Assembly: GCA_051859245.1 (NCBI GenBank)
Contig: JBHYGA010000005.1
Span: 731,537-795,536 of the forward strand
Origin: Gemmatimonadaceae bacterium
Lineage (GTDB): Bacteria > Gemmatimonadota > Gemmatimonadetes > Gemmatimonadales > Gemmatimonadaceae
Direction of reading: 5' to 3'
DNA: 64,000 nucleotides
The notes beneath the pieces were generated by a model that was not told where the DNA came from, did no database searches, and saw only the letters and a program-made list of their open reading frames with translations. A program made the translations under genes and the position numbers. This document shows, piece after piece, positions 14,258 to 38,556 of the stretch. Numbering within the stretch: position 1 is the first letter of the stretch; every line of letters starts with the position of its first letter.

Positions 14258-14366
14258 CACCTTGGTGTCACATAGACGCTAGCGCGTCCCTGCGTCACTT
14301 GTCCGGGCTCTGGCGCATATCTAACTTCATATGTTAGGCCATTTTCCGCCCTCCCATCGGTTTTCT

Positions 14367-15083: not shown

Positions 15084-15130
15084 GTCGTGATTTTGCGCAA
15101 CGGATATTCTTTCAGGACTCGGGGCATCGC

Positions 15131-20353: not shown

Positions 20354-20354
20354 C

Positions 20355-20858: not shown

Positions 20859-20874
20859 TGTCGCGACTGGCGTG

Positions 20875-21405: not shown

Positions 21406-22406
21406 GTGCGCTGCCGGGACACGTTGAGTCGTCGCACACGGTTGGTGTGCACGCGGGTGAGCGCCTCGATTTGTATGTGGCCAGCCAGTGCAATCTCTCG
21501 CGCACGCAGGCCGCCACGCTGATTGCCAACGGTCATGTGCAGGTAAACGGCGGGCACGAAAAAGCGAGCTATCGCACGCTGTCGCGCGATGTGGTGCACG
21601 TGGTGATTCCACCGCCCCCCGGTCGCGAAGTGCTGCCGGAGAGTTTGCCGCTGCGCATTGCGTACGAAGACGACGACATGCTCGTGGTGGACAAGGACGC
21701 GGGCATGGTAGTGCATCCCGCGCCCGGCAACTGGAGCGGCACGCTTGTGAACGCCCTGGTTGGTCGCGGGAATCCTCTGGCCACCGGTGGTGGTGAAGAG
21801 CGACCGGGCCTGGTGCACCGTCTCGATAAGGAAACGAGTGGGCTGTTGGTGGTGGCCAAGACGGAATTCGCACACCGCACGTTGAGCGCGGCACTCGCTG
21901 CCCGCACGATCCGCCGACGCTACGCTGCGCTCTGTTGGGGACACCTGAAAGAAGAGCGCATTGGTGTGGATGCGCCGCTTGCGCGTGATCCGAAAGACCG
22001 CCAGCGCATGGCGATTGTCAGCACCGGCAAAAAAGCACGCACCACGTTTGTGCGTGTGGCACGCTTTGACAGTGTGGATCTCGTCCGCGCGCACCTGCAC
22101 ACGGGGCGCACGCATCAGATTCGTGTGCACTTGTCATCGATCGGACATCCGGTCGTGGGCGACGATACCTATGGAGGTGGTGGAGGGCGTCGGCTTGCGT
22201 CTTTGCCGCCCCGTCGTCATTTCCTGCATGCCGCGTGGTTGCTGCTTCCGCATCCGGTCACGGGCAAGCTCATTGAGTTGCGCAGTCCGTTGCCCGATGA
22301 CCTGCGCGCATCGCTCGTTGCCGTGGCGCGACTGCCTGAGTTGAATGATCACCCCGATCCCCTCGACGCCCTTGGCTTCTTTCACGTCGATCCCGACGAT
22401 CCCTGA
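21402..22406 (+). CDS. rluD: RluA-family (RluD-like) pseudouridine synthase
   Basis: S4 domain (ERLDLYV), VDKDAGMVVHP, VHRLDKETSG, TGRTHQIRVH, HPVVGD. Confidence 0.92.
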   Translation: MSALPGHVESSHTVGVHAGERLDLYVASQCNLSRTQAATLIANGHVQVNGGHEKASYRTLSRDVVHVVIPPPPGREVLPESLPLRIAYEDDDMLVVDKDAGMVVHPAPGNWSGTLVNALVGRGNPLATGGGEERPGLVHRLDKETSGLLVVAKTEFAHRTLSAALAARTIRRRYAALCWGHLKEERIGVDAPLARDPKDRQRMAIVSTGKKARTTFVRVARFDSVDLVRAHLHTGRTHQIRVHLSSIGHPVVGDDTYGGGGGRRLASLPPRRHFLHAAWLLLPHPVTGKLIELRSPLPDDLRASLVAVARLPELNDHPDPLDALGFFHVDPDDP

Positions 22407-22944
22407 AGAACAGCAGGACGAGCGCCCGCGGGTGCTCGTCGTGTCCGTCGTGGGACAACTCTGCGCCTTGCCGATTGAGCTGGTGCGCGAGGTGATCAGA
22501 CCAAAGAGCATTACGCCGATTCCTGGCGCACCCGCGGTGGCGAGCGGTTTGGTCAACGTGCGCGGCATGGTGGTCACGGTGCTCGATCTGGCCGCCGCCC
22601 TGCGCATGGACGGTGTGCCGTTGGCCGAGACGGTAACGGAACGCGCCAGCGGTGAACCGTTACTTCGTGCCGTCGTCCCGTCATCAATCGTCCTGCTTGA
22701 GCATGGCAGCCGCGTTGTCGGTGTGGCCGTTGATGCAGTGCACGATGTGCGGCCGCTTGACGCGGGTGTCGCATCTGCCGGGGAAGAGGCGTTGGCGGCG
22801 TCCGGAAGTGCCGGCCCTGACAACGCTGATGAACCACCACGAATCGCGCGTGGTGTTGCGAGTGCGGGTGACGACATCGTCATGCGTCTCGACCTGGGTG
22901 CGCTCCTCGCACGTGTAATGCTCTCTTCGGAGGAAGGACCGTGA
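22345..22944 (+). CDS. cheW: Chemotaxis coupling protein CheW (1)
   Basis: LPIELVREVI, ITPIPGAP..GLVNVRG..VTVLDL, VGVAVDAV. Start uncertain, overlaps rluD end. Confidence 0.85.
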   Translation: MITPIPSTPLASFTSIPTIPEEQQDERPRVLVVSVVGQLCALPIELVREVIRPKSITPIPGAPAVASGLVNVRGMVVTVLDLAAALRMDGVPLAETVTERASGEPLLRAVVPSSIVLLEHGSRVVGVAVDAVHDVRPLDAGVASAGEEALAASGSAGPDNADEPPRIARGVASAGDDIVMRLDLGALLARVMLSSEEGP

Positions 22945-23306
22945 GTCAGACCGTACTGATCTGCGACGACGCGATTTTCATGCGGACGATGGTCGGTGAC
23001 ATCTTGTCGCAGGCTGGCTTCGAAATCGTTGGCGAAGCAGAAACTGGCGTGCAGGCGGTGGAGAAATACCGTCAGCTCCAGCCGGATCTTGTGACGATGG
23101 ACATCGTGATGCCGGATATGGGTGGCATTGATGCCGTTCGTGAGATCACCAAAAACGATCCGAAAGCCCGCATCCTGATGTGCAGCGCCATGGGACAGCA
23201 GGCCCTCGTGGTCGAAGCCATTCAGGCTGGTGCCAAGGATTTTGTGGTGAAGCCGTTTCAGCCGAGTCGTGTGCTGGAAGCGGTGCAGCGCGTGCTCGCG
23301 GCGTAA
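22941..23306 (+). CDS. cheY: Single-domain response regulator CheY (Bacillus/DifD-like)
   Basis: DDAIFMR, DLVTMDIVMP, CSAMGQQ, AKDFVVKPF. Confidence 0.93.
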   Translation: MSQTVLICDDAIFMRTMVGDILSQAGFEIVGEAETGVQAVEKYRQLQPDLVTMDIVMPDMGGIDAVREITKNDPKARILMCSAMGQQALVVEAIQAGAKDFVVKPFQPSRVLEAVQRVLAA

Positions 23307-23342
23307 GCCGCCGCTCGAGTCAGGCACCGCAGGAGGCGCATC

Positions 23343-25292
23343 GTGGACATCGCGCGCTACGCCGAACTCTTTCGCACCGAAGCGCGCGAGCACCTCGCCA
23401 GCATAGACGCGGCGCTCGCCACGTTAGCGGATGATCGCGCGCCAGCCGAACAGAGCGACGCGATCGATTCGCTGTTTCGCTCAACGCACACGATCAAGGG
23501 CATGGCCGGCGCGATGGGCTACGCGTCGGTGGAACAACTCGCGCACGCCAGCGAAACACTGCTGGCCGCGGTGCGCGAAGCCGCTGTGCCCGCGGACAGT
23601 ACGCTCGTCACGCTGTGTTATGAAGCGGTCGACGCGCTGGCGCAGCACATTGATGATGCGGTGGACGGGCAGGAAGACCGACCCGTTGCCAAAGCGCTGC
23701 TCGAGCGGCTCGCGTCCATGGCGGACTCGATTGAAATGGATCGCGTGCAGCGTACGACCGCTACGTGGCGTGTACCGTCGCTGCAGGATCTTGCGGGCGC
23801 GGCCGAACCGATCGCTGTCGACGAACCGGCGGCGTCCACGATTGAGTGGGTCGTCGCGCCACGCGAAACGGCAGAAACAACGAGCACCACGCGACTGGTC
23901 GTCATCGCGCTCGCTCCCGACGCGCCACTCAAATCGGTGCGCGCCCAGCTGGTGGTGGCGAAGCTCGAAACACTCGGTAAGGTGCAGGGCACCGAACCGT
24001 CGGTACAGTCGCTGTCGGATACATTCGACGGGGCGTTCACGGTGTTGCTCGACACAAGCGCGAGCGACGAGAACATCGAACGGGCCGTGCGCAGCGCCGG
24101 TGACGTGGCGCGCGTGCAAGTGCGTGATCCCGTGGTGCGACGTGCGTCGCGCGATGTGTTGCGGCATGTGCGCATTGATCTCAAGCGGCTTGATTCACTG
24201 CTCGATCTGGTGGGTGAGTTGGTAATTACGCGCGACCGACTGTTGCGGGTGGCCGATGCGTCGGGTGATCGACAGGTCGCGGCTGCCGCGCACGATGCAT
24301 CGCGTCTGGTGAGTGCGCTGCAGGAGGAGATTCTTCAGGCGCGGATGGTACCGGTGGGTCAGGTGTTCGATCGCTTTCCGCGACTGGTGCGCGATGTGGC
24401 GCGCGAACTGGGCAAGGAGATCGCGTTCTCCATGGAGGGGCGCGACATCGCGCTCGATCGCTCCATGCTTGATGCCATTGGTGATCCGATTGTGCACCTG
24501 CTACGCAACGCGATTGATCATGGTATCGAGTCACCGGAACAGCGGGCGCAAACAAACAAGCAGCCGAATGGTCGTTTGATTCTGCGCGCACGGCGCGACC
24601 GCGCGGCCATCGTGATTGCCGTGGAAGACGATGGTCGTGGCATTGATCGCAGCAAAGTGCTGGACCGCGCCATGGCGGAAGGACGCGTGGAGCGCCATGT
24701 CAGCGCGTTGTCCGATGAAGACCTGGTCAAGTTGCTGGCGCAGCCCGGCTTCTCCACAGCCGCCACGGTGACGGCTGTGTCCGGTCGAGGTGTGGGGATT
24801 GATGTGGTCGCGAATCGCGTTCGCTCGCTCGGCGGGTCGCTGGAAATTGAGAGCGAGCCCGGTCGGGGCACAATTTTTTCCATGCGACTGCCCGTCACGC
24901 TGGCCATTGTGCGTGCGCTGCTTGTGCAGGTGGGCGATCACACCTACGCGGTGCCTGCGGCCCACGTGGTGGAAGCGGTGGAGTTCGACGACGTCGCACG
25001 CCTCACGCTGCGAGGGAAAGAGGCCGTGTCCATGCGCGACGAAGTGGTGCCGCTGGTACGACTTCGTCGTGTGTTCGGGGTACCGCCGGCAGACGACGCC
25101 GGTGCGCAGCTTCTGATCGTGGACACAGGCGGCCGGCGCATCGCCTGTAAGGTGGACGCCCTGCTCGGACAGCAGGATATCGTGGTCAAAGCCTTTGATG
25201 CCGTGACGGGATCCTCGTCTCTGTTCAGCGGCGCGACAATTCTCGGTGACGGGAGCCCTGCGCTCATCGTCGATGTAGGAAGCCTCGCCTGA
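23343..25292 (+). CDS. cheA: Chemotaxis histidine kinase CheA
   Basis: HPt FRSTHTIKGMA, P2-like domain, LDLVGELVI, HLLRNAIDHG, DDGRGI, GFSTA, SGRGVGIDVV, C-terminal CheW domain. Confidence 0.97.
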   Translation: MDIARYAELFRTEAREHLASIDAALATLADDRAPAEQSDAIDSLFRSTHTIKGMAGAMGYASVEQLAHASETLLAAVREAAVPADSTLVTLCYEAVDALAQHIDDAVDGQEDRPVAKALLERLASMADSIEMDRVQRTTATWRVPSLQDLAGAAEPIAVDEPAASTIEWVVAPRETAETTSTTRLVVIALAPDAPLKSVRAQLVVAKLETLGKVQGTEPSVQSLSDTFDGAFTVLLDTSASDENIERAVRSAGDVARVQVRDPVVRRASRDVLRHVRIDLKRLDSLLDLVGELVITRDRLLRVADASGDRQVAAAAHDASRLVSALQEEILQARMVPVGQVFDRFPRLVRDVARELGKEIAFSMEGRDIALDRSMLDAIGDPIVHLLRNAIDHGIESPEQRAQTNKQPNGRLILRARRDRAAIVIAVEDDGRGIDRSKVLDRAMAEGRVERHVSALSDEDLVKLLAQPGFSTAATVTAVSGRGVGIDVVANRVRSLGGSLEIESEPGRGTIFSMRLPVTLAIVRALLVQVGDHTYAVPAAHVVEAVEFDDVARLTLRGKEAVSMRDEVVPLVRLRRVFGVPPADDAGAQLLIVDTGGRRIACKVDALLGQQDIVVKAFDAVTGSSSLFSGATILGDGSPALIVDVGSLA

Positions 25293-25343
25293 CCGGCGCG
25301 TCGCCTGACCGGCGCGAGACTTCTGACTTCTTCGGAGTGCACC

Positions 25344-25964
25344 ATGGAGGCCATCAGGACCCTCAAGTCCATCCAGCTCGATGCGTTGCGGGAAACCGCG
25401 AATATCGGGGCGGGCCACGCAGCCACTGCGTTGTCACAGATGACGGGCAGCACCATCATGATCAAGGTGCCCGCCATCAACATTGTGCAGCTGGAAGCCA
25501 TTCCGGCGCAGTTTGGTGACGAGGAAGAGCCCGTTGCCGCCGTGATGATGCACATGCTCGGCGATCTAAGCGGACGCACGTTGCTGGTGTTTCCCAAACC
25601 GACCGTGATGCGACTGGCCGAGTTGATGCTGCGTCGTCCGGTGGGCTCGTCCGTCGCGCTCGGTGAGCTGGAAACGTCGGCCATCAAAGAGGCCGGTAAC
25701 ATTCTGAGCGGCGCGTACATGAATGCGCTGTCGGATTTTCTGGGCATGTTGTTGCTGCCGTCACCACCGTCGCTGGTGATTGACATGTCGGCCGCGGTGC
25801 TGAGCAGCGCCTACACACAGTTTGCGTCCGACCCGGATTCCGTGTTGTGCGTGGAAAGCGAGTTCATGCTCACGGATCTCGGACAATCGCTGCGCGGGTT
25901 CTTCCTGCTGCTGCCGGATCCGGCCTCGCTGCAGGTCATGCTGCGAGCGCTGCGGCTCGCCTGA
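25344..25964 (+). CDS. cheC: CheC phosphatase
   Basis: Two E-x-x-N motifs: DALRETANIGAGHAATALS and SAIKEAGNIL. Confidence 0.93.
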   Translation: MEAIRTLKSIQLDALRETANIGAGHAATALSQMTGSTIMIKVPAINIVQLEAIPAQFGDEEEPVAAVMMHMLGDLSGRTLLVFPKPTVMRLAELMLRRPVGSSVALGELETSAIKEAGNILSGAYMNALSDFLGMLLLPSPPSLVIDMSAAVLSSAYTQFASDPDSVLCVESEFMLTDLGQSLRGFFLLLPDPASLQVMLRALRLA

Positions 25965-25987
25965 CGGCGAGGACGTTGGGTCACCCG

Positions 25988-28807
25988 ATGTCTACGGAAC
26001 CGACGGCCGATCGCAACATCGCGCTGTTGCTGGCACTGGCCGGTCGCATTGACGCGACGGATCCCGGTGCCTGCAACAATCTTGGCGTGTTGTACTACTC
26101 CAAGGGGCTGCACGCAGAAGCGGTGCAGGCGTTCTTGCAGGCGCTCGCGATTGCACCGCGCATGCGCGTGGCGGCGCGCAACCTTGAAGTGGCCGCGGCG
26201 AACACCGGTGCATGCGATGCGTCCATCGCGGCACTCGAAGCGCGGCTGACCGGCGATTCAGCAGACCTGTCCGCTCGGCGGGAACTCGCGCGACTGTTCC
26301 GGTTCCTCGGTCGCGCGGCCGACGCCGCAGCACAGCTGGACGCACTTCTGGCCCAGGAGCCAGACGATGCGCTCGCACTCCGCGAATACGGCGTGCTTGA
26401 ACAGCAGGGTGGAGATCTTCGCAAAGCGCAGCGTTGGTTTGAGCGTGCGCTCGCGATTGAGCCGGACGATCCCACGACGCGCTTGCATCTCGCCGAAGTG
26501 CACTATCATCGTGGTGCCAACGAACAGTCGTTGCGCGAGTTGGATGCGCTGCTGCAACTCGATGATCGTGTTGCCGAAGCGCATCTGCTGCGCGGGTTCG
26601 TGCTCGGAGATATGGGCTACCACGAAGCGGCGGGTGAAGCCGCGCGTCGTGCGAATGCACTTGATCCGGCCATGGCCACGCTGGAGTCGGATCTCTCACT
26701 CGATCCGCGTCTCGCGCCCGCAAGCGGAGCGCCAGCCGGCAGTGTGCCCGCGATTCCAATTACGCGCGGACTGCTTGATACACCGGCTATGCTCGGCGTG
26801 GTGAGCAATCAGTCACTCGCGCGTCACAGCTTAGGTCTCGCATTCCGTCAACGCGGCTACTTTGCCGAAGCACGCCGCGAGTTTGAGCGCGCGGCCGCGC
26901 AGGGTGAAGACGCCATGATGGTGCGTCATGCGCTCGCCGAGCTGGATCTGGTGCAGGGGTTCCACGTTGACGCAAAGGCACGCTACGCCATGTTGCTCGA
27001 AGAGCGGGGCGACGACGCGCGGTTGTGGAATGAGCACGGTGTCGCGTTGCATCAGGCTGGTGATGTCGCTGCGGCCGCCGAGAGTTACCGTAAGGCGCTG
27101 CGTGTTGATCCGCGCTATGCGCTCGCGTACAACAACCTCGGTGTGGCGCTCGAAGATCTGGGCGACGGTGTGCCGGCGCGTGAAGCGTTGCAGCGTGCCA
27201 CAACACTCGATGCGACGCTCGTGCGTTCACGGTTGAATCTCGGCCGTTGGCACATGCGTCATCGCGATCCCATGGCGGCGCTGGCCATTCTGCGTGAACT
27301 GGTGGCGTTTCACCCCACGCTCTCAGACGCCTGGCACGAGATGGGACTGGCACTGCTCGCGTTGCACCGCGTAGACGAAGCACGCACGGCGGTGACCACG
27401 GCCATTGAGCACCGGCCCGATCACGCGGAAGCACGGTACACGCTGGCACAGGTACTCGGTTCGCTCGGCGATCATGATGGCGCACTGCGTGAAACACAGC
27501 ACGCGCTTGGTTTGGCGCCTGTCCGGTCAGCACCGCGTCTCACCGTGGAGATTGCGCTGCACGAGGAGTGCCCCGAGTCTGTTGGTCGACTCGATCTCTT
27601 GTCGGTGGCGGAGCCCGAGCCGCTGGTGGGGGCGGAGATTTCCGATGACGACGTGGCCGCGCTGTTGCCGGAACGCGCACCGGTGCCAGGCGCGCGCAAC
27701 GACGCTCCTGCGTTCACCCTGCAGCAGCGCCTTGAAGCGGCTGATGTGCTGCTGGGCAGCGGTCAACACGAGGCCGCGCAGCGCGAGGCTCAGGATGTGC
27801 TGGTGCAGTGCACTGCGGCGGTGCGAGAGGAGCAGCCTCTGCTGGAAGCACACGCCATTGCGTTGATTGCAGATTCGTTCGCCGCAGCCGGAGTGCATGG
27901 TGAAGCGTACGAACGCTACAGTCAGGTGCGTGCGTTGCTGAAGCGAGACTCCGGTGCGCGAAGCGCGATCGAGGGCATTGAGCGGCGTGCGTTGCTGGGT
28001 GAGATTCGCTCGGCCTGTTTGCTGGGTCGCGGCGCCGAAGTGATTGCGCTGGTGGAGCGATTTGGGTCGCACGACACGCAGGATGCCGATGTGCTCGCGT
28101 TGCTGGCTGCATCGCACGCTGCACTTGCGGATGCGTATGGTACACGTGTTGCGCGGGCCGCGATTGATCGGTTGTTGCGGCTTGATCCCAGGAGCGCCGC
28201 GCTGCTGCACTTTGTGGGTGACGCGGCGGTGCACATGGGAGAATCCACGTTGGCGGTCGTGTTGTATCGACGCGCCCTCACGATTGATCCAACGCGTCCG
28301 TCGCCGCGTGTGGCGATTGCCCAGTTGCTGCATGCGAGCGGCAATCATCTGGCGGCCCGACTTGAACTCGTAGCGGCGTTGGCGACGGCGCCGAACTTTC
28401 GCGAAGCACGACTTACGCTTGCACGCGTGCACCGCGACAGTCAGCGCCCGACCGAGGCAATTGCTGTACTGGCGTCGCATCTTGAACGCGAGCCCGCAGA
28501 CGTTGACGCGCTCGTGGCGCTCGCCGAGTCGCTGCGCGCGGCCAATCGTGCAGAAGATGCGCGCACGGCCGTGCAACGGGCACGTCGATTCGAACCCGAT
28601 CACCCGGAAGCATTGTGGATGGACGGCGTGTTGCTCGCCGATCAGGGACGTACGCGTGATGCACGCTCCCGGTGGGGTCGTCTGATTGCGATGGCGCCAG
28701 GGTCATCGGCAGCGACTCGTGCGCGCGATGCACTCGCCCTGGCGATCGAACGATTCACGCCCTCGTCCATGGCAACCGCAACGCCCGCACGTCGGGAGAC
28801 ACGATGA
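25988..28807 (+). CDS. Large cytoplasmic multi-TPR protein (~939 aa)
   Basis: Many TPR consensus units (ACNNLGVLYYSKG, AYNNLGVAL, AWHEMGLAL). No signal peptide. Confidence 0.88.
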   Translation: MSTEPTADRNIALLLALAGRIDATDPGACNNLGVLYYSKGLHAEAVQAFLQALAIAPRMRVAARNLEVAAANTGACDASIAALEARLTGDSADLSARRELARLFRFLGRAADAAAQLDALLAQEPDDALALREYGVLEQQGGDLRKAQRWFERALAIEPDDPTTRLHLAEVHYHRGANEQSLRELDALLQLDDRVAEAHLLRGFVLGDMGYHEAAGEAARRANALDPAMATLESDLSLDPRLAPASGAPAGSVPAIPITRGLLDTPAMLGVVSNQSLARHSLGLAFRQRGYFAEARREFERAAAQGEDAMMVRHALAELDLVQGFHVDAKARYAMLLEERGDDARLWNEHGVALHQAGDVAAAAESYRKALRVDPRYALAYNNLGVALEDLGDGVPAREALQRATTLDATLVRSRLNLGRWHMRHRDPMAALAILRELVAFHPTLSDAWHEMGLALLALHRVDEARTAVTTAIEHRPDHAEARYTLAQVLGSLGDHDGALRETQHALGLAPVRSAPRLTVEIALHEECPESVGRLDLLSVAEPEPLVGAEISDDDVAALLPERAPVPGARNDAPAFTLQQRLEAADVLLGSGQHEAAQREAQDVLVQCTAAVREEQPLLEAHAIALIADSFAAAGVHGEAYERYSQVRALLKRDSGARSAIEGIERRALLGEIRSACLLGRGAEVIALVERFGSHDTQDADVLALLAASHAALADAYGTRVARAAIDRLLRLDPRSAALLHFVGDAAVHMGESTLAVVLYRRALTIDPTRPSPRVAIAQLLHASGNHLAARLELVAALATAPNFREARLTLARVHRDSQRPTEAIAVLASHLEREPADVDALVALAESLRAANRAEDARTAVQRARRFEPDHPEALWMDGVLLADQGRTRDARSRWGRLIAMAPGSSAATRARDALALAIERFTPSSMATATPARRETR

Positions 28808-29901
28808 GTCTCGAAGGCACGATTCGCGATCTTGGATTGCACGAAGTGGGGCAGCTGCTTTCGTTGAGCCGCAAGAGCGGCGTGCTCAGCGTGTCGTCGC
28901 TGCTGCGCGGACGTCGCGCCTGGATTCGATTTGCTGAAGGTGCCATTGTCGACGCTGGCGCAGACGATCCACCGGGTGCCGGCGAGGCCACCAGCGACGC
29001 GGCGAGCGGATCGCGACCACACGTGGAAGAGCAGGTACTCGACGTGCTGGCGTGGCGCGAAGGGAGATTTGCGTTTGCGCCTGAACCCGTTGGTGCGGCG
29101 AGTGCAAGTCGCGTGCGCATTCCTACCGATGCGATGCTCGTGGAATCGGCGCGTCGCGACGATGCATGGCAGCAGTTGGCAGATCGTGTACCATCGGCCG
29201 ATGTCGTGCCTTCCTTTGTGGACGTTGAGCCCAAAGCGCTCCCCTTGCTGCGCCTTGTGCCGCAGGAGTGGGAAGTCCTCACGCGAGTGGACGGGGTACG
29301 CACGCTGCGCACGCTGGCGCAGCTCCTGCAGCGCGATGTGATCGAGGTGGCCGGCATCGTGCATCGCCTCGTCGGTACGGGGTTGCTCACCGTGCGCGAG
29401 GGTGGTGCGCCGCGTCGCGTCATCACGCCGGTAAGCGGGGACATCGTGGAATCCGAGCTTTGGATTCCGCCCACCGCTGAAATGGCCGTATTCGACGCGG
29501 ATGCTGATCCCGATGATCTGGTCTTTGATCCGCTGCGCGCCGGCCTGCTGACCCCGCATGGTTCGCCGCGAATTACGCCGCACACCTTGTCCACACGCGG
29601 CTCGGAAACCCCAGTGAGCACCGTCACGCCCCCGGCACGACCAGCGGTTGCGTTCGAGGGGGCCGAAACGTCCTTGTCGGGGAGCCCGACGCACGCGGGA
29701 ACCGATGTCAAACCGGATGCGAGTGGCCTGCGCGAGCTGGGTGACTCGGCCGCTCGACGCGGTGACTTCACGTTGGCGCTCACCCACTGGAGTGCGTATC
29801 TGCGCGTGGCCGATCACGACCGCGATGCGGACCGCGTTCGTGAAGCGATTGGACTCGCGGCGCGACTTCAGGCGTTACTGCATCCAGCGTCGACTGAGTG
29901 A
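28804..29901 (+). CDS. DUF4388 (PATAN) domain protein with winged-helix-like and C-terminal TPR-like segments
   Basis: MSLEGTIRDLGLHEVGQLLSLSRKSGVL...WREGRFAF...DAMLVESARRDD. ATGA overlap with TPR gene. Confidence 0.85.
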   Translation: MSLEGTIRDLGLHEVGQLLSLSRKSGVLSVSSLLRGRRAWIRFAEGAIVDAGADDPPGAGEATSDAASGSRPHVEEQVLDVLAWREGRFAFAPEPVGAASASRVRIPTDAMLVESARRDDAWQQLADRVPSADVVPSFVDVEPKALPLLRLVPQEWEVLTRVDGVRTLRTLAQLLQRDVIEVAGIVHRLVGTGLLTVREGGAPRRVITPVSGDIVESELWIPPTAEMAVFDADADPDDLVFDPLRAGLLTPHGSPRITPHTLSTRGSETPVSTVTPPARPAVAFEGAETSLSGSPTHAGTDVKPDASGLRELGDSAARRGDFTLALTHWSAYLRVADHDRDADRVREAIGLAARLQALLHPASTE

Positions 29902-29985
29902 AGCGCCCGTCACCCGACGGGATTTTCAGCACCACATTGCGTTTTCGTCCGACGTGTGCAACGCGCGTCACCGAGGAGCGAGCAC

Positions 29986-30732: not shown

Positions 30733-32687
30733 GTGGCCGAGCGCTCGATGGCGGATACCGCTTCGAGAATTTTGTTGTCGGTGCGTCCAATCGTCTCGCG
30801 CACTCTGCTGCGCAGCGCGTGGCCGATGCGCCAGGCAGTGCCTATAACCCACTGTTCATTTACGGCGGGCCTGGATTAGGCAAAACGCATCTTGCCGCCG
30901 CCATCGCGTATCACGCGCGGCAGTCGCACCCGGCGCTGAGAGTTGAACTCACGAGCGCAGAAGACGTGGTGGAACGCCTGCATCGTGCGATCGCCTCGGG
31001 GCAGCGCGAACAGTACGCCACGCACTTTCAGCAGGTGGACCTGCTGTTGCTCGATGATGTGCAGTTTCTTACGGGTCAGCGTGAAACACAAACTGAACTG
31101 TTGCGACTGTTCAACCTGATGCAGAGCGGTGGGCGGCAGCTGGTGATGACCAGTGATCGTCCGCCGGCGGAAATCCCCGACGTTGACCAGCGCCTCGTGT
31201 CACGTCTGTCGGGCGGATTGGTGGTTGATGTTGGTGCGCCCGATTTTGAAATGCGTCTCGCGATTCTGCGCAACAGCGCCGAAGAACGCGAACTCGTCTT
31301 CGTGGACGGCGTGCTTGATGAAGTGGCGCGACTTGCGCTTGGCAATGTGCGCGAGCTCAAGGGTGCGCTCAATCGGCTGGCGGCGTATCAGCAGCTCGAA
31401 CCGGCGCCGATCAATGCCGCGGACGTTCGCGCGGTACTCGGCGAACGCTTGAGTGGCGTTTCGGGGGCCGTGCCTGTGGTTCCGGACACGACGCGCGCGA
31501 AACCCGCGGAATACGACGGCTTTCTCGCCGACGTCACGCAAGAAGTGGAAACACGCGTGGAGCGTTGGCGCGTCACGCTGGGCGAGGCGTGTGCGTTCTG
31601 GCGGAGCGAAGGCTTCGTCACGGTGGTGCTTGAACGCGCCATGCAGCTGCCTGCGGCGCCAGATGTGAACGGCCTGCTGGCCACGTTTGCGGCGGCGGTT
31701 GACCACTTGCGCGGTCTGGAGATGCAAGCGGTGACGCTGGATCCGGGTGTACGCGGGCATCCTGCATTTCGTAATCCCGAAATGGTCGCGGAAGCGCAGC
31801 GTTTGCTCGATCGCGCGCTGGCCTCTGCGTTGCCCCTGCCGGCGCCCAATCCGCAGTATACCCGCAGCGGGCTGGAAGCCGGCTTGTCAAATCAACTGGC
31901 ACTCAAGGCCGCCGACGCGGCGATTGAACATCCGGGTCAGCGCTACAATCCGCTGTTCATTCACGGGCCAAGCGGCACCGGCAAAACACATCTTGCACAC
32001 GCGATTGCGAGCGCGCTGCGCGACATGAAGCCGCGCACCGCCGTGGCCTGTGTTGACGCAACCACATTTGTCGAAGAGCTGGTCGCGGCCATGCAGGAAG
32101 GTGGCGTGGAGCGCTGGAGAGCACGTTATCGCGCCGCCGAAGTACTGGTCATTGATGATGTGCATCAACTCGCCGACAAAGAGCGCACGCAGGAAGAGCT
32201 CTTTCATCTGTTCAATGTGTTGCATGATCGTGGTGCGCAGATTGTGCTGACCAGTGATCGGGCGCCGCGCGAGTTGCGCGGTATGGCCGATCGCTTGCGC
32301 TCGCGATTTGAAGGCGGACTGGTAGTCGTGCTGCAGCCGCCTGATCGCGCGTTGCGCGAACGGCTGGTGCGTCGCCTGCTGATCGAAGCCGGCTACGCGG
32401 ACGACGCAACACTGGTGTCGTACCTGTCCGATCGTGAAGCGACCAGCGCGCGTGAACTCGAAGGTGTGATTACCCGCCTTGCTGCGGCCGCAGATTTGCT
32501 GGCGGTGCCGCTGGATTTACCCCTGGCGCGACGCGAGCTGGAAGGCGTGACGCGCATGGTCGCGGCCACACCGCGCGCTGGCGTTCCGCTTCGCGACGGT
32601 GCGCAAGACGCCTTCTTCCTTGATCACGAAAAAATTCTCTGGGATTGGCCCGATGCCGGTGATCGTTTGCTCGAGGACTTCCGATAA
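30729..32687 (+). CDS. Tandem DnaA/Hda-family AAA+ protein (two domain III modules, no domain I or IV)
   Basis: Module 1: YNPLFIYGGPGLGKTHL, LLLDD, TSDRPP, RLVSRL, NVRELKGAL. Module 2: YNPLFIHGPSGTGKTHL, LVIDD, TSDRAP, RLRSRF, SARELEG. Confidence 0.9.
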   Translation: MSGRALDGGYRFENFVVGASNRLAHSAAQRVADAPGSAYNPLFIYGGPGLGKTHLAAAIAYHARQSHPALRVELTSAEDVVERLHRAIASGQREQYATHFQQVDLLLLDDVQFLTGQRETQTELLRLFNLMQSGGRQLVMTSDRPPAEIPDVDQRLVSRLSGGLVVDVGAPDFEMRLAILRNSAEERELVFVDGVLDEVARLALGNVRELKGALNRLAAYQQLEPAPINAADVRAVLGERLSGVSGAVPVVPDTTRAKPAEYDGFLADVTQEVETRVERWRVTLGEACAFWRSEGFVTVVLERAMQLPAAPDVNGLLATFAAAVDHLRGLEMQAVTLDPGVRGHPAFRNPEMVAEAQRLLDRALASALPLPAPNPQYTRSGLEAGLSNQLALKAADAAIEHPGQRYNPLFIHGPSGTGKTHLAHAIASALRDMKPRTAVACVDATTFVEELVAAMQEGGVERWRARYRAAEVLVIDDVHQLADKERTQEELFHLFNVLHDRGAQIVLTSDRAPRELRGMADRLRSRFEGGLVVVLQPPDRALRERLVRRLLIEAGYADDATLVSYLSDREATSARELEGVITRLAAAADLLAVPLDLPLARRELEGVTRMVAATPRAGVPLRDGAQDAFFLDHEKILWDWPDAGDRLLEDFR

Positions 32688-34312
32688 TGGCGATTCGCGG
32701 AAGTCTTAGCGAAGCAAGTCTGGCGGATGTGCTGCAGCTGCTGGCACTCGGTCAGAAAACGGGTGTGCTCAGTCTGGCGCGCGAAGGCAGTTTCGGGGCG
32801 GTGCACTTTGACCGTGGTGCGATCTGGCACGCATCTTTGGTGAATCGACGGGACCGACTGGCCGACCGACTGCTGCGCGCCGGCGTTATTGAGGCCGACG
32901 CGTTAGCGCGCATTCAGGCCGAGCTGCCGGATGACGACGACCGACAGCTCGCCCGACTGTTGCTCGCGCGCGAACTCGTGCCTGGCGACATGATCGCGCG
33001 CGAGTGCCGCGCGTTGATCGAAGAAATTGTGTGTGTGTTGTTCACGTGGAATGCGGGTACGTTCGCGTTTGAAGCGCAGCAGTCGCCGGCGGATCCGCTG
33101 ATCGTGGCCGTACCAGCGGATTCGCTGCTCATGGAAGCCGCGCGTCGCGTGGATGAATGGACGCAGATTGAAAAGAAGATTCCGTCGCTCGATCTTATCT
33201 TTGAGATCGATGTGGTGAGGCTGCAGCAAAGTGGCGTAGCGCTCACGTCTGATCAGTCGATCGTAGCACCGTGGCTTGATGGCACGCATGATGTGGCATC
33301 AATCGTCGAGCGGTCAGGGCTTGGCGAGTTCGCGGTCGGTAAAGCGGTGTACGGCTTGGTCACGGCCGGATTTGCGCAGCGAGTGGGCCGCAGCTCGGCG
33401 CGCCGTCAGCCGGCGCCGGAAAGTCGTGTGGCCGAGCACCGCAATCTTGGCGTGGCGTTCTACCGCACGGGCATGTATGACGAGGCCTCGCGGGAGTTCC
33501 GCCGTGTGCTCGAGCTGCGTGCCGATGATCTGGGCGCGCGCTTTCATCTGGGTCTGGTACACGTGCGTCGTGAAGCCTGGGATGCGGCCATCGACATGCT
33601 GCGGCGTGCGGCTGAACAGCTCGATGCCAAACCTGCGGTGTTGCAGGCCCTCGCGTATGCCTACGAACGCAGTGGGCAGCTGGAGTTGGCGGAGAGCACG
33701 CTGGCGGAAGCGGCACGTCGCGGCGGTTCTGAAGATCCGCGCGTGGCGTTGTCACAGGCGGTGGTGGCTACGCTGCGCGGTGATCTGCCACGCGCTGAAG
33801 AACGTCTGTCCACCGCACGCTCGCTGTGGGGAGCGCGCCAGCCCAGTGCCGTGTGGTTTCATCATGCGGGGCTCGCGGCAGCGCTGCGTGGTGAGACGGA
33901 TCGAGCGGTGGCGCTGCTTGAAGAAGGCACCGCGCTGCATCCGCACGCCACGGTGTTGTTCAATGATCTGGCCGTGGTGCAGGAGCGTCGCGGCGCTCAC
34001 GAAGCCGCGGCTCGTACGCTTGAACATGCACTGCTCGAAGAAAGTGGTCTGCCGCAGCTGCACAAGAATCTCGGCGACTACAAGTATCGTGCGCAGCAGT
34101 ATGACGATGCGTGTGACTCGTACGAGCGGGTGGTGCGACTTGCACCTGACCACGGTGCCGATGTGTGGCTGAAGATCGGCAATATTCACTATCGCCGCGG
34201 CGATCAGTTTGCGGCGCGGGAAGCCTGGGAACGAGCGCTGGCGATTGATCCAGGCAACGCCATCGTGCGCGGGAACCTCGGCGTATCGCGCGGACAGGAG
34301 ACCGCCGCGTGA
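32687..34312 (+). CDS. DUF4388 (PATAN) plus TPR repeat protein
   Basis: MAIRGSLSEASLADVLQLLALGQKTG, WNAGTFAF, LLMEAARRVDEW, then TPRs (EHRNLGVAFYRTG, LHKNLGDY, VWLKIGNIHY). Confidence 0.88.
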   Translation: MAIRGSLSEASLADVLQLLALGQKTGVLSLAREGSFGAVHFDRGAIWHASLVNRRDRLADRLLRAGVIEADALARIQAELPDDDDRQLARLLLARELVPGDMIARECRALIEEIVCVLFTWNAGTFAFEAQQSPADPLIVAVPADSLLMEAARRVDEWTQIEKKIPSLDLIFEIDVVRLQQSGVALTSDQSIVAPWLDGTHDVASIVERSGLGEFAVGKAVYGLVTAGFAQRVGRSSARRQPAPESRVAEHRNLGVAFYRTGMYDEASREFRRVLELRADDLGARFHLGLVHVRREAWDAAIDMLRRAAEQLDAKPAVLQALAYAYERSGQLELAESTLAEAARRGGSEDPRVALSQAVVATLRGDLPRAEERLSTARSLWGARQPSAVWFHHAGLAAALRGETDRAVALLEEGTALHPHATVLFNDLAVVQERRGAHEAAARTLEHALLEESGLPQLHKNLGDYKYRAQQYDDACDSYERVVRLAPDHGADVWLKIGNIHYRRGDQFAAREAWERALAIDPGNAIVRGNLGVSRGQETAA

Positions 34313-35127
34313 GCACCGTCGACGAGCGTTCCGTTGCGAACCTCGACGATGGACTGGATCGCCTGCTCGCAAAGATTGCGAGTGAGCACGGTGTCCCGTG
34401 CCTCGGGTACAAGCCGTCGTGTTTGCGCCGTCGCGTAAGCGTGCGCCTTCGTGCTACAGGCACTCAGAACTTCGCCGCGTACGCGGCGCTGCTCGATGCG
34501 CAGCCAGAGGAGTGGCCACGCCTGCTTGATGCGCTCACGATCAACGTGACTGGCTTTTTCCGGGACCACAGCGTGTATCGCGTGCTGCGTGAGCAGGTGA
34601 TCCCATCACTCATGGGAGCGCACCCGAATACACTTCGCGCGTGGAGCGCGGGCTGCGCCAGCGGTGAAGAAGCGTGGAGCATCGCCATGCTGCTCGCTGA
34701 GTGCGCGGGCGTGACGCGTACACAGGTGCTCGCCACGGACATCGATACGCAGAGCCTCGCACGAGCCACGGCTGGCGCGTACCCCGCGATTATTGCGCGC
34801 GAAATGCCCGAGGAGTTGCAGCGGCAGTGGTGGTCGGGGCACGAACCAGTGGTCGTGAGCGACGCGTTGCGGCGTTGCGTAACATTTGGGCGGTTCAACC
34901 TGCTCACTGATCAGGCACCGCCGTCCGCGTACGATCTGATCACCTGCCGCAACGTGCTGATCTATTTTGCGCGTGACGCGCAAGAGTCGCTCTTCATGCG
35001 CTTCGCCGACGCGTTGCGCATTGGCGGTGTGCTCGTGCTCGGCAAGGTGGAAATTCTGTCAGGGCCAGCGCGTGCGCGATTTGCGGCTATTGACGCGCGT
35101 GAGCGTATTTATCGGCGCGTGGCATGA
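34309..35127 (+). CDS. cheR: Chemotaxis methyltransferase CheR
   Basis: LTINVTGFFRD, WSAGCASGEEAWS, ATDID, DLITCRNVLIYF. Confidence 0.95.
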   Translation: MSTVDERSVANLDDGLDRLLAKIASEHGVPCLGYKPSCLRRRVSVRLRATGTQNFAAYAALLDAQPEEWPRLLDALTINVTGFFRDHSVYRVLREQVIPSLMGAHPNTLRAWSAGCASGEEAWSIAMLLAECAGVTRTQVLATDIDTQSLARATAGAYPAIIAREMPEELQRQWWSGHEPVVVSDALRRCVTFGRFNLLTDQAPPSAYDLITCRNVLIYFARDAQESLFMRFADALRIGGVLVLGKVEILSGPARARFAAIDARERIYRRVA

Positions 35128-35603
35128 CGGAGATTCGCGTGTCGATTGCCGACTATGCGGTGGCGCGGGGCGGAACACGTCTGATCACGGTGGGCCTCGG
35201 CTCGTGCGTGGCGATTGCGTTGCATGCTAAAGCGCAGAACGCAGGCGCACTCGCGCATGTGATGCTACCGCACGAAGCGCTGTCGAGCGATCGTTCAAGT
35301 CCGGGCAAGTTCGCGTCGTCGGCCGTGCCGCATATGCTCACGCAACTGAAAGCGCTTGGTGTGGTGGACGGACTTGAGGCGCGGCTGGTTGGTGGAGCAT
35401 CCATGTTTGAGCAACTGCTGCCAACTGGTGCCGTGCCGCTCGGCACTCGCAATGTGGCGGCGGCGCGCGCGGCCTGCGCGGCCGCGGGAATTCCGATTGT
35501 CGCGGAAGACACCGGCGGTGGTTTTGGTCGCAGCGTGTTCTTTGATATCAACGAAGGACGTTTAACGGTGCGCTCCGTGGCGCGTGGCGATGTTGAGCTC
35601 TGA
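35124..35603 (+). CDS. cheD: Chemoreceptor glutamine deamidase CheD
   Basis: TVGLGSCVAI, AHVMLP, GGASMF, GTRN, EDTGGGFGRSV. Confidence 0.95.
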   Translation: MTEIRVSIADYAVARGGTRLITVGLGSCVAIALHAKAQNAGALAHVMLPHEALSSDRSSPGKFASSAVPHMLTQLKALGVVDGLEARLVGGASMFEQLLPTGAVPLGTRNVAAARAACAAAGIPIVAEDTGGGFGRSVFFDINEGRLTVRSVARGDVEL

Positions 35604-36702
35604 CGTGACACGCCGCCGCCGCGTGCTTGTGGTGGATGACAGCGCCTTCATGCGCCGTCTGATTCGCGATCTCATCACCGATAGTGGTGAGTTTGATGTG
35701 ATCGGTGTGGCGAAGGATGGGACCGAAGCCATTCGCATGGTGCACGAACTGGACCCGGAGATCGTCACGCTCGACATCGAGATGCCCGGACTCGACGGCC
35801 TTGAGGTCCTGGGCTACATCATGAGTGAAGTGCCGCGCGCCGTGGTCATGCTTAGTGCCGGCGGGGGCGATGGCGCGGCCGCGAGCACGTTGCGCGCGCT
35901 TGAACTGGGTGCGGTGGATTTTGTGCGCAAGCCATCGGGTCCGATCAGCATCGACTTTGCGCGCGTTGCTGATCGGTTGCTTGATGCACTGCGTGCCGCG
36001 GCAGAAATGCGTGTGGAGAAGGTGCACGTGCTCGCGCGCCCCCTTGGTGCATCGCACGCCTCACGCCGATTGCGAGCGGTATCCACGCCGGCCACGTGCG
36101 CGGTGGTGATCGCCGCATCAACCGGCGGACCGGCGGCGCTCACGCAGGTGATTCCGCGCCTGCCACGAGGGTTGGGCGCGGCGGTGCTGGTGGTGCAGCA
36201 CATGCCCAAGGGTTTTACCGCGAGTCTCGCACAACGTCTTGATGCCGCCAGTCAGTTGCGCGTGTGCGAAGCGACTGATGGTGATCTTGTGCAGCCCGAT
36301 ACCGTGTACATCGCGCCGGGCGGTTTGCACATGCGCGTGCTCTCCACGGTGGACGGTCCGCGCCTGTCACTCGAGCACGGTCCCACCATGTGGGGCGTGC
36401 GTCCCGCTGCGGACCCGCTGTTTTCATCGGCAGCCGAGACGTTCGGTGCGCAACTGGTGGGTGTCGTGCTCACCGGCATGGGACGCGACGGTGCCGATGG
36501 CTTGCGGCTGGTGCGTGCGGCTGGCGGAGCAGCACTGGTGCAGGATCCGGCGCACGCCGTGATTCCGGGCATGCCGAATGCCGCGCTGCGGCACGCTGGT
36601 GCCGATGCCATTGTGCCAATCGGTGAAATGGCGCACATGATTGAACAACAGCTCGCGCTGCTGCCGCCATACACGCCGCAGGCTCGCGGAGGTGTCGCGT
36701 GA
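35590..36702 (+). CDS. cheB: Chemotaxis methylesterase CheB (REC plus esterase)
   Basis: VVDDSAFMRR, TLDIEMP, ASTGGP, VQHMP, LTGMGRDG. Start uncertain (35584-35605). Confidence 0.96.
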   Translation: MLSSDVTRRRRVLVVDDSAFMRRLIRDLITDSGEFDVIGVAKDGTEAIRMVHELDPEIVTLDIEMPGLDGLEVLGYIMSEVPRAVVMLSAGGGDGAAASTLRALELGAVDFVRKPSGPISIDFARVADRLLDALRAAAEMRVEKVHVLARPLGASHASRRLRAVSTPATCAVVIAASTGGPAALTQVIPRLPRGLGAAVLVVQHMPKGFTASLAQRLDAASQLRVCEATDGDLVQPDTVYIAPGGLHMRVLSTVDGPRLSLEHGPTMWGVRPAADPLFSSAAETFGAQLVGVVLTGMGRDGADGLRLVRAAGGAALVQDPAHAVIPGMPNAALRHAGADAIVPIGEMAHMIEQQLALLPPYTPQARGGVA

Positions 36703-37157
36703 CCATCACACACGACCTGCTCCTGTTCGACGTGGGCGCCGAGCGATTTGCGGTGCCGTTGGCGGCGCTGCGATCTGTCGAGGACAGCGTGCGTGTGCAA
36801 CGCACACGCGTTCCGCACGAGCGGGGTGTTGGTGTGTGGCGTACAGATGATGCGTTCGTTACGGTGTACGAGCCGGCGCCGGTGCTGGGTGTGTCGCTGC
36901 ACAGCGCGGAACCGCTGCTCATGTTATTGAGCGGTGCGAGCGGGAACGTGGGATTGCTCGTCGATCATGCGGAGGCTGCAGTGGCGGTTGACACCGGCGC
37001 GTTGCGCGATCTCTCGGGGCTTGGCGCTGGCGACCGCGTGGTGCTGGGTGCCTTGCGCCACGAGGAACGGTGGGTGACTCTGCTCGATGCCGGTGCACTG
37101 GTCGATGCGTTGGCCACGCGCGTTGGGTTGTCCTCGCACCAGGAGATGTCGTCGTGA
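36699..37157 (+). CDS. cheW: Divergent CheW-like protein (2)
   Basis: LLFDVGAERFAVPL, VGLLVD, VTLLDAGAL. Weak but recognisable CheW pattern. Confidence 0.7.
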   Translation: MTITHDLLLFDVGAERFAVPLAALRSVEDSVRVQRTRVPHERGVGVWRTDDAFVTVYEPAPVLGVSLHSAEPLLMLLSGASGNVGLLVDHAEAAVAVDTGALRDLSGLGAGDRVVLGALRHEERWVTLLDAGALVDALATRVGLSSHQEMSS

Positions 37158-37669
37158 TTTCACGCACAGCTGCGGCCCAGGCGATTGTTGATCACGCCAC
37201 GCTCGTCACGTTTTCTGTTGGCACGCATTTGCTCGCGGCGCCGGTGGAACACGTGGAACGTGTCCTGCGGTGGACACAGCCCTCGCCCATGCCGCAGCTG
37301 CCAGACTGGCTGGACGGCGTGATTCCCCACGGCGGACGCATGGTTCCCGTGGTGGATCTGCGCAAGCGCTTTGGTCAGACGCGTGTTGAGTCCAACGCGT
37401 CCACGCGCATCGTGGTGTTCGCCGTTGGATCAGACTGGCTCGGTGCGGCGGTTGATGGTGTGCATGATGTCATCACCGTGGACGCGACCGGCATCACGCC
37501 GCCGCCCCCCGTGGTGCGCGGACTGTCCGGGCAGTACTTGTTGGGTCTCGCGTCGCGCAACGATCGGGTGGTCCTCGTGCTTGATGTGGGACGTTTGCTC
37601 ACCTCCACGGAACAGCTCGCGCTGCACGACGCCGAACTGAATCACGATTCACCAGCGCCCGACGCATGA
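37154..37669 (+). CDS. cheW: CheW (3)
   Basis: LVTFSVG, PMPQLPDWLDGVI..GRMVPVVDLRKRF, GAAVDGVHDV. AGGAG RBS at 37141. Confidence 0.9.
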   Translation: MISRTAAAQAIVDHATLVTFSVGTHLLAAPVEHVERVLRWTQPSPMPQLPDWLDGVIPHGGRMVPVVDLRKRFGQTRVESNASTRIVVFAVGSDWLGAAVDGVHDVITVDATGITPPPPVVRGLSGQYLLGLASRNDRVVLVLDVGRLLTSTEQLALHDAELNHDSPAPDA

Positions 37670-38556
37670 CGGAACAGCTGTTGCCGACAGACGCGAGTCC
37701 CAACGCCCACACAACACTCGCCGAGCTGGTGCTCGCCGAGCAGTTGTTGCGTGAACGGTTGGCCGGCACACACAACGCGTCGGAGCGCGCGGCGCTGAAA
37801 GATGAGATCATTGCGCTGTTCCGCGCTGTTGAAGCCACGGAAGCGCGCGTGTCTGCGCTCAAGCAGTCAGTGAAGTCGCTCGCAGAAGAGTGGAAAAAAT
37901 CAGATGGTCGCGCGGCCAGTGGCTCGTCGCGCGGTGCGCAATCGCAGCGCGTGGATCATCTCGGCGCGTCCACATTTGTCGAGAAGGGCTGGTCGCGATT
38001 GGCGCTCGGAGACGCGCCGGCCGCGGAGGCCGCGCTGCACCGTGCATTGGCCCTGGCGCCCGGCAGCAATGAAGCCGAAGCGCTGCTCGGCTGGGCGCAG
38101 ATGATGCAGGAACAGTACGATGTCGCTCTGCTCACCTTTCACAATGTGTTGTTGCGCGAACCGCAGAACGCACTGGCGCGCACGAATGTGGGCTACATCT
38201 GTCTGCGCAAAAAGATCTATGGCGAGGCGATTGAGCACCTGACCAAAGCCATTCGCCTCGATAACGACCCCAAGGCCACGTTGTACGCGCACCTCTATCT
38301 CGGTTTGGTGTATTTCGATCGCGAGATGTACGACGACGCGCGAATGTTCTTTGCGAAGACGCTCGCGCTCGGCCCGAACATGCTGCAGGCGTATTTTGAA
38401 CTCGGTCGTGCGCATTGGTTTGCCGGCGATAAAGTGGCAGCGCGCGAGGCGTGGCGAGATGGCGCGGCGGCGAACAAGTTCAACCCATGGGGCAAGCGGT
38501 GCGCAGAGGTGCTGGCGGCGATCGAACAAGGGGAGCAACCTCCGCGCGAGGTGTAG
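37666..38556 (+). CDS. Coiled-coil plus TPR protein
   Basis: N-terminal heptads (LKDEIIALFRAVE), then TPRs (ARTNVGYI, AHLYLGLVY, AYFELGRAHW). Confidence 0.85.
   Translation: MTEQLLPTDASPNAHTTLAELVLAEQLLRERLAGTHNASERAALKDEIIALFRAVEATEARVSALKQSVKSLAEEWKKSDGRAASGSSRGAQSQRVDHLGASTFVEKGWSRLALGDAPAAEAALHRALALAPGSNEAEALLGWAQMMQEQYDVALLTFHNVLLREPQNALARTNVGYICLRKKIYGEAIEHLTKAIRLDNDPKATLYAHLYLGLVYFDREMYDDARMFFAKTLALGPNMLQAYFELGRAHWFAGDKVAAREAWRDGAAANKFNPWGKRCAEVLAAIEQGEQPPREV

Follow-up and report, generated by a model that had tools for sequence, protein, structure and literature searches.

Among described systems, the one formed in Myxococcus xanthus by the Frz chemosensory pathway, the GTPase MglA with MglB and RomR, and the tetratricopeptide repeat (TPR) protein SgmX lies closest to a 15-gene operon of Gemmatimonadota, an abundant but poorly studied soil phylum of soil and freshwater bacteria. 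The operon occupies positions 22345 to 38556 of a 64,000-nucleotide stretch, termed the window (GCA_051859245.1, contig JBHYGA010000005.1, 731,537-795,536, forward strand), from a Gemmatimonadaceae bacterium whose close relatives are Gemmatimonadaceae. Both systems have a chemosensory pathway, a catalytically intact MglA, TPR proteins and type IVa pili, and Frz-MglA also shares Roadblock proteins with the ancestral form of the operon. However, the genes here form one operon, the Che pathway is F1-like with CheC and CheD and without a CheA-CheY hybrid, only here are there two PATAN proteins and an ATPase with DnaA-type domains in tandem, and the parallel to SgmX and RomR is drawn by analogy. 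The arrangement most likely works like Frz-MglA pilus control, built from different parts and with a new pair of ATPase and scaffold. We hold it just probable that the F1-like pathway and the MglA polarity module jointly control where or when type IVa pili work.

Other described systems share fewer parts. The Bdellovibrio bacteriovorus hub of MglA, the TPR protein Bd2492, RomR and CdgA also has an MglA without its own mglB, a TPR protein and pili at one pole; its description (PMC3983030) names no che operon, ATPase or PATAN protein, whereas here a second mglB-mglA pair lies elsewhere and the inserts for cyclic di-GMP (c-di-GMP) are in decay, not in use. Class F1 systems of Thermotoga, Bacillus and haloarchaea share a CheA with a P2 domain, CheC, CheD, the best profile and PDB matches and, as orphan genes here, receptors of 44-heptad (44H) length; unlike them, the present system mostly occurs without flagella, carries an inner module and has lost cheR, cheD and cheB piecemeal. 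Cyanobacterial PatA-type proteins (PixE, PixG, PilG) likewise have a PATAN domain with a two-repeat helical insert and are encoded with a chemosensory system, but the PATAN proteins here bear TPRs and no receiver, and CheY is separate. With DnaA and Hda, the tandem ATPase shares the domain III fold and the Walker A, Walker B, sensor and arginine-finger motifs, whereas its tandem domains, novel helical linker, conserved tail and dispensability in some lineages set it apart, as does the lack of domain I, domain IV and the clamp motif.

MglA genes near PATAN genes were noted in PMC4316618, which also states that mglA of Myxococcus and Bdellovibrio is not near partner genes. Its supplement gives G. 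aurantiaca GAU_1409 as 'PATAN>MglA>-PATAN>' and GAU_1115 as 'MglB>MglA>', which is the same core arrangement without mglB and, as here, a separate pair; the GAU_1409 row names no che genes, ATPase or TPR proteins. A first-pass annotation of the window had put the combination down as not known from any characterised system, and no description of the operon or the tandem ATPase was found in the literature searched, in which subscription journals were largely uncovered. The conserved operon arrangement is real and, in that literature, undescribed.

Gene order and its conservation

Profile matches to the proteins bear out the 15 co-directional genes, their proposed families and their order, cheW-cheY-cheA-cheC, then TPR-DUF4388-mglA-tandem DnaA AAA+-DUF4388/TPR, then cheR-cheD-cheB-cheW-cheW-TPR. 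Start and stop codons mostly overlap, as the first-pass annotation had it: with the start codons chosen here, overlaps (-1, -4 or -14 nucleotides) occur at 10 of 14 junctions, and the remaining four are gaps of 23-84 nucleotides. The genes, with one neighbour, are as follows:

22345..22944, + strand: cheW (PF01584, E 2.5e-19); true start probably later, e.g. 22372 or 22432
22941..23306, + strand: cheY (PF00072; best NCBIfam match CheY_Halo), a single receiver domain with D54 and K104 intact
23343..25292, + strand: cheA, F1-like, Hpt-P2-dimerisation-HATPase-CheW, with H49 and ATP boxes intact
25344..25964, + strand: cheC phosphatase with two ExxN motifs
25988..28807, + strand: large TPR protein of 939 residues; generic TPR matches only in the PDB search
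28804..29901, + strand: PATAN (DUF4388) protein A with C-terminal TPR; the MshEN insert of relatives is deleted
29986..30732, + strand: mglA, small GTPase; equivalents of G21, R53, T54 and Q82 intact, no mglB adjoining
30729..32687, + strand: tandem DnaA-type AAA+ ATPase (AAA1, helical linker, AAA2, conserved tail)
32598..32687, + strand: region coding for the ATPase C-terminal tail, F-x3-EK-x2-W-x-WP-x4-R-x2-EE, a predicted TPR ligand
32687..34312, + strand: PATAN (DUF4388)-TPR protein B, with a degenerate MshEN insert and a TPR groove at residues 282-493
34309..35127, + strand: cheR methyltransferase, gone from the operon in most close relatives
35124..35603, + strand: cheD deamidase; family profiles match, catalytic motifs present
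35590..36702, + strand: cheB methylesterase with receiver, S-H-D triad intact
36699..37157, + strand: divergent cheW (PF01584, E 6e-12)
37154..37669, + strand: cheW (PF01584, E 1e-30)
37666..38556, + strand: coiled-coil and TPR protein, present in most loci
38586..39644, + strand: HEXXH peptidase-MA-like membrane protein, the usual downstream neighbour; putative member of the system

The first cheW start, 22345, is probably too early, because it creates a 62-nucleotide overlap with rluA and related CheW proteins have about 110-160 residues. Catalytic motifs were found in all of CheA, CheY, CheB, CheC, CheD and CheR, and blastp found no second cheC in the genome.

Conservation of order in relatives had been proposed as a check, and a comparison of 70 related loci, drawn from at least seven families, showed no rearrangement, so the order is no product of chance. 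In 45 of the 70, cheY-cheA-cheC and the pair of ATPase and PATAN-TPR genes lie in one stretch, the others being cut by contig ends or gene loss. In nearly all loci, spread over at least six families, cheC and cheR enclose the inner genes, whose codons overlap. A profile of the ATPase linker matched 135 of 201 sampled Gemmatimonadota genomes, nearly always in single copy (families f1 27/38, f2 95/97, f3 3/3, f4 3/4, f5 1/1, f8 3/3, f7 2/24), and none from f6, f9, f10, f11 or f12 in that sample. The genomes are related by kinship, so these tallies are distributions, not statistics; the unpublished G155 is counted solely in the 201-genome tallies.

Most relatives carry TPR-Roadblock, Roadblock and MglB genes between PATAN-A and mglA. 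In the window and 24 loci, PATAN-A is directly followed by mglA; the protein B tree took in 23 of these 24, which with the window form one long-branched clade (26 rows, support 100). G092, outside this clade, also lost its Roadblock genes. On these sequence comparisons, the window copy is Gemmatimonas-like and reduced relative to the longer ancestral operon, which had MglB and c-di-GMP-binding inserts.

The tandem ATPase and its tail

The new component is a double DnaA-type ATPase, free of a DNA-binding domain, with a tail predicted to bind the PATAN-TPR protein. Its structural model (mean predicted local distance difference test score, pLDDT, 89; predicted template modelling score, pTM, 0.55) consists of AAA1 (6-237), a helical linker (about 258-367), AAA2 (374-605) and the tail (624-652). 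The best fold match is DnaA domain III (42% identity and a root-mean-square deviation, rmsd, of 1.8 A to B. subtilis DnaA domain III), and both the AAA+ domain III fold and the motifs of DnaA are present. The families of domains I and IV (PF08299, PF11638 between them) were found neither in the query nor in the Pfam lists of 120 homologues, TIGR00362 covers only positions 103-339 of 437, and a canonical dnaA with both families lies elsewhere in the genome, beside dnaN. The first-pass description of a repurposed replication-initiator ATPase therefore stands in the sense that the protein is not an initiator: domains I and IV are lacking and a full dnaA lies elsewhere. Additionally, none of 75 N-termini matches a pattern for the Hda clamp-binding motif, and the protein has two domains, not an Hda-like single one.

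Walker A, Walker B and arginine-finger residues are kept in both AAA domains across 75 sequences. A set of 23 canonical DnaA domains has 87 nearly invariant columns, of which 51 are kept in AAA1 and 40 in AAA2, and retention is complementary, with the nucleotide pocket and lid kept in AAA1 and the KERTQEE.FH face, which binds single-stranded DNA (ssDNA) in DnaA, kept in AAA2. In a quick tree each domain forms its own clade, distant from canonical DnaA including that of the genome itself. L129, L131 and L140 have no AAA2, and several other loci have an AAA2 with a cut lid.

No Pfam family covers the helical linker repeat, and a fold search with the linker returned a common helical arrangement (best Z 5.5), while the Atlas gave no usable match. 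Its profile found 441 representatives (E up to 0.001), mostly of the same build as the ATPase, while shuffled and reversed controls scored at most 5.4 bits. The linker unit (W-x-x-E-G-Y...F...DP) also occurs in 4 to more than 11 tandem copies in long proteins, including some of Thermoplasmata, fused to DUF835, KaiC-like, zinc-ribbon or single DnaA AAA+ domains (P0126, P0127, P0128, P0146, P0190, P0207, P0121). Four linker-repeat proteins terminate in one DnaA domain lacking domain IV; these domains group with canonical DnaA, so the pairing of linker and DnaA may have arisen twice. An archaeal fusion was not accepted as proof of a tie between ATPase and PATAN proteins: its N-terminal domain resembles PATAN/DUF2226 weakly (hhalign E 0.049; Pfam E 0.041 in one of three; Atlas 0.88, 0.84) and in the quick tree its AAA+ domains join canonical DnaA and stay apart from the tandem domains. 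When metagenomes were scanned twice for the archaeal gene neighbourhood, the result was nothing, or DnaA-domain matches without linker, tail or PATAN.

The tail outlasts the rest of the protein. In all 68 loci that have a PATAN-TPR gene (two of the 70 do not), a gene ending in the tail lies directly upstream; 61 were recognized by profile and seven by a smaller search (L130 among them) or by eye. In six loci (L137, L138, L139, L255, L261, L262), in-frame deletion of both AAA domains has left a mini-protein of 60-76 residues, comprising the tail and the first helix of the linker (read partly by eye); these may represent one or two events only. Five of the six also lost the MshEN insert while keeping the PATAN half, and L255 kept the insert. 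Mini-proteins of this size are easily missed by annotation. Of the whole operon, G114 and G157 retain just the ATPase and protein B.

A structure-prediction check among the proposed partners gave a predicted interaction for this pair. A complex model of ATPase residues 255-652 with protein B scored 0.76 against 0.00 for the best control, with contact agreement of at least 73% and partner pLDDT of at least 75; among solved complexes 116 of 157 attain the scoring mark, among mismatched pairs 2 of 215, counts that hold only roughly for these alignments. In the model, tail residues 624-652 occupy the TPR groove of protein B (282-493), and at the centre of the interface the most conserved tail residues, E634, K635 and W640, face N461 and D464. 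The tail is thus predicted to dock in the groove of protein B, and its conservation strengthens the prediction.

Receptors, polarity proteins and output

In class F1 fashion, CheA has the layout Hpt-P2-dimer-HATPase-CheW and is accompanied by CheC and CheD, the class being assigned by likeness (best PDB match of CheA, the CheA of 3ja6/1b3q). Systems of the Frz/Tfp class are marked by a CheA-receiver fusion and a receptor gene inside the operon; among the 15 operon proteins, CheA has no receiver domain, and a profile search found no methyl-accepting chemotaxis protein (MCP) domain. 'Receptor-less', the first-pass description, is true of the operon only. The genome encodes nine MCPs and three CheA, and with two of the nine of 44-heptad length and MCP and CheA lost together elsewhere, a receptor-less system is rejected.

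Measured from the hairpin tip, the arms of the nine MCPs end at about +124 in five, about +131 in two and +152 in two. Arms ending at +152 are assigned to the 44-heptad class, an assignment that leans on the receptor of PDB 2ch7, which we take to be of that class. One of the two, C6:290791-292506, has methylation motifs at +116, +123 and +130 and aligns without gaps over the C-arm of 2ch7. Receptors of the 44H class pair with F1 systems (10.1101/2022.05.07.491037). Eight FliG-negative genomes that have just one CheA hold 23 MCP loci; 19 of these were measurable (of the others, three have no tip motif and one is truncated), and all 19 are of 44H length; both 44H receptors of the genome cluster with MCPs of FliG-negative genomes (support 91 and 92, quick tree). 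Furthermore, 126 of the 135 linker-positive genomes have an MCP match, and all nine without one (G037, G042, G107, G110, G147, G174, G157, G165, G186) also lack a match to the CheA dimerisation domain, G037 retaining a shortened cheA-like gene. The class match and the joint loss of MCP and CheA support the view that the F1-like pathway uses orphan 44H receptors, encoded away from the operon, which would feed the operon CheA.

A periplasmic binding protein gene lies translationally close upstream of the first 44H receptor (C6:289835-292506) and is a candidate sensory input. The second receptor of this length, C4:325553-327289, has several transmembrane helices and no consensus methylation site. 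Apart from the three che clusters, an orphan cheR (C1:68575-69450) stands beside a large HAMP-type sensor gene. Within the clade of the window copy, cheR, cheD and cheB have been lost one by one.

The assignment as MglA comes from similarity to the M. xanthus protein (E 5e-61). Aligned to that protein, the GTPase has the motifs GPGRSGKTT, DRTLFF, TVPGQ and NKQD, in keeping with the Group 1 MglA family, with G21, R53, T54 and Q82 as functional reference (PMC3199381). Changes specific to the clade are switch-I and beta-2 substitutions, ATRRDRTLFFDY in place of ATQTDRTLFFDF, and a C-terminal extension. The window operon holds no Roadblock gene and so no adjoining cognate mglB; the genome has two Roadblock genes elsewhere. 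A Bdellovibrio precedent exists for an MglA that works without MglB at a single pole (PMC3983030). One of the two Roadblock genes lies in a separate mglB-mglA pair (C5:415044-416222) after dnaX-ybaB-recR, whose MglA carries 33 inserted residues ahead of the G5 region; a stand-alone Roadblock gene (C5:915662-916015) lies immediately upstream of a gene for a single-domain response regulator.

Both PATAN proteins match PF14332, named PatA_N, above its cut-off, and neither has a C-terminal receiver domain, TPRs standing in its place. Within the window clade the MshEN insert is deleted in protein A and decayed in protein B: NF053729 (cut-off 38 bits) matches neither window protein, gives 13-19 bits in four clade relatives and reaches 36-57 bits in nine insert-bearing proteins outside the clade. 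Set against the MshEN consensus RLGxx(L/V/I)(L/V/I)xxG...LxxxLxxQ, protein B reads RLA and QLA for RLG, so that the glycine on which binding of c-di-GMP depends (PMC5013675) is alanine in both motifs.

FliG is encoded in 53 of the 201 genomes, the window genome included, and is missing from 98 of the 135 linker-positive ones (present in 37), while all 11 genomes of f10 are FliG-positive and linker-negative. The absence from 98 linker-positive genomes indicates that the output is not flagellar, and on this distribution flagellar output was rejected. Among pilus proteins, the window genome encodes PilT, PilM, a PilB that bears an MshEN domain, a protein resembling PilC and a secretin resembling PilQ. 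In Synechocystis, PATAN domains have PilB1 and PilC as binding partners (10.1101/2021.06.11.447907), and MglA-GTP and SgmX position PilB in M. xanthus (PMC7519303); by these precedents, type IVa pili would be the likeliest target of the system.

The operon is preceded by ftsH-cdaA-divIVA-ileS-lspA-rluA and followed by rsmH and the division (dcw) cluster. cdaA (diadenylate cyclase) and a DivIVA-domain gene lie at 13463-15751 of the window, 6-9 kb upstream of the operon, and two lspA (lipoprotein signal peptidase) genes stand side by side at 20340-21405, between dksA and rluA. The gene string probably extends past 38556 into the HEXXH peptidase gene. The peptidase was considered as a partner of the ATPase and stays a lead only: it occurs in 169 of 201 genomes and yet is missing from linker-positive G054, G067, G095, G126 and G153. 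Nine linker-negative genomes of family f1 (genera g5, g10, g18, g22) also lack it. Between window positions 14000 and 33999, promoter-like sites (4 against 3.1 expected) and terminator-like sites (13 against 16.8) are near expectation, so the scan gives nothing on transcript ends.

Proposed joint pilus control and its rivals

If the chemosensory pathway and the MglA module jointly control pili, orphan 44-heptad receptors would set CheA activity through the CheW proteins, and CheY-P, reset by CheC, would signal to the inner module and not to a flagellar motor. PATAN-TPR protein B would hold the tandem ATPase through its C-terminal tail, and the two AAA+ domains, judging by their residues, would probably form a nucleotide switch in which AAA1 supplies the ATP pocket and AAA2 the arginine finger. 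MglA-GTP and the TPR proteins would place the ATPase complex at a pole, and the PATAN domains, by analogy with SgmX and PixE, would act on PilB/PilC. The clade's loss of the operon Roadblock/MglB genes and of c-di-GMP input suggests a pole that is fixed and does not switch, or use of the separate mglB.

Several observations weigh against this proposal. The wiring of CheY/CheA to the inner module is read from gene nesting. G110 and G174 keep the inner module without che genes or MCP, as does genus g52, and G072 and G182 keep che genes, mini-protein and protein B with no mglA in the locus; coupling of the two halves is therefore not obligatory, and the inner module does not depend on Che. Hence, of the first-pass claim that one operon wires Che to a polarity module, co-inheritance in fixed order stands, whereas persistence of the inner module without che genes speaks against it. 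G112 has one MCP but no CheA match. TPR grooves often take C-terminal peptides, and the docking model may owe its pass to such likeness; conservation at the interface is only a little higher than in the rest of the TPR residues (p 0.14 over all residues, 0.02 over polar ones). The large TPR protein has generic TPR matches and no specific match to an MglA effector. Finally, no pilus gene is found among the operon genes, and PilM, present in 195 of 201 genomes including families without the operon, is too near universal to discriminate a pilus output.

Alternatively, the system might serve cell-cycle or budding polarity, the tandem ATPase touching DnaA in the manner of Hda, or ssDNA, and so tying the replication or division site to MglA and chemosensing. 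Both domains have the DnaA fold (42% identity, rmsd 1.8 A), the AAA2 arginine-finger motif is present in 75 of 75 sequences with much of the DnaA-conserved KERTQEE.FH face, divIVA-ileS-lspA-rluA flanks the operon on one side and the rsmH/dcw cluster on the other, and the pair of ATPase and PATAN-TPR protein is the last retained in G114 and G157. However, the query and its 120 homologues lack domains I and IV, the clamp motif is absent from all 75 N-termini, both domains fall far from the genome's DnaA in the tree, AAA2 is missing in L129, L131 and L140 and both domains in six loci, 66 of 201 genomes have no linker match, and the flanking order is ordinary housekeeping synteny. This account is unlikely. 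It is improbable, too, that a fused DnaA/Hda-like switch, in which AAA1 would bind ATP and AAA2 would supply the arginine finger and a DnaA-like face, is tethered by its tail to the PATAN-TPR scaffold where MglA marks the pole and touches the replication initiator or ssDNA from there.

Dif of Myxococcus, an F1-class pathway with CheC, offers another model, in which the operon would govern exopolysaccharide, adhesion or a surface trait, PATAN-MshEN would read c-di-GMP and pili would be no more than an input. The F1-like CheA, CheC and 44H receptors fit it, as do independence of flagella and MshEN inserts scoring 36-57 bits on NF053729 in nine of nine proteins outside the clade; yet the operon holds no polysaccharide gene (a GDP-mannose dehydratase gene follows it only in L139), it is kept in the clade where MshEN is lost or decayed, and the precedent for MglA and PATAN lies in pilus control, which leaves this model also unlikely. 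That an ordinary che pathway and an MglA/ATPase/PATAN module merely share a transcript with no direct wiring would explain why the halves survive apart (inner module in G110, G174 and G042; che genes without mglA in the locus in G072 and G182), but nesting of the inner genes between cheC and cheR in nearly all loci of at least six families would be surprising without shared function, and we rate it rather improbable. A flagellar chemotaxis system, as F1 serves in Bacillus and Thermotoga, is very improbable: the components are of class F1 and the window genome has FliG, but 98 of 135 linker-positive genomes do not, f10 has FliG in 11 of 11 genomes without the linker, and another che cluster of the genome adjoins flagellin-like genes (by eye).

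Joint pilus control thus remains the reading preferred here. In Myxococcus, the route from the chemosensory pathway to MglA is still indirect; here a single operon holds the candidates and the lineage has cultured members, which makes the link between Che and MglA directly testable. The natural deletions of che genes, MglB, ATPase domains and c-di-GMP inserts mark the dependence among the parts. If the DnaA-like switch does contact the initiator or ssDNA, a chemosensory pathway would directly set replication or budding polarity, and the linker repeats of Thermoplasmata, some beside a DnaA domain without domain IV, would point to a class of signalling ATPases that spans domains of life. The operon also shows a replication-initiator ATPase put to new use in signalling, its interface predicted in concrete terms, and under joint pilus control a core motility or polarity circuit would be supplied for Gemmatimonadota.

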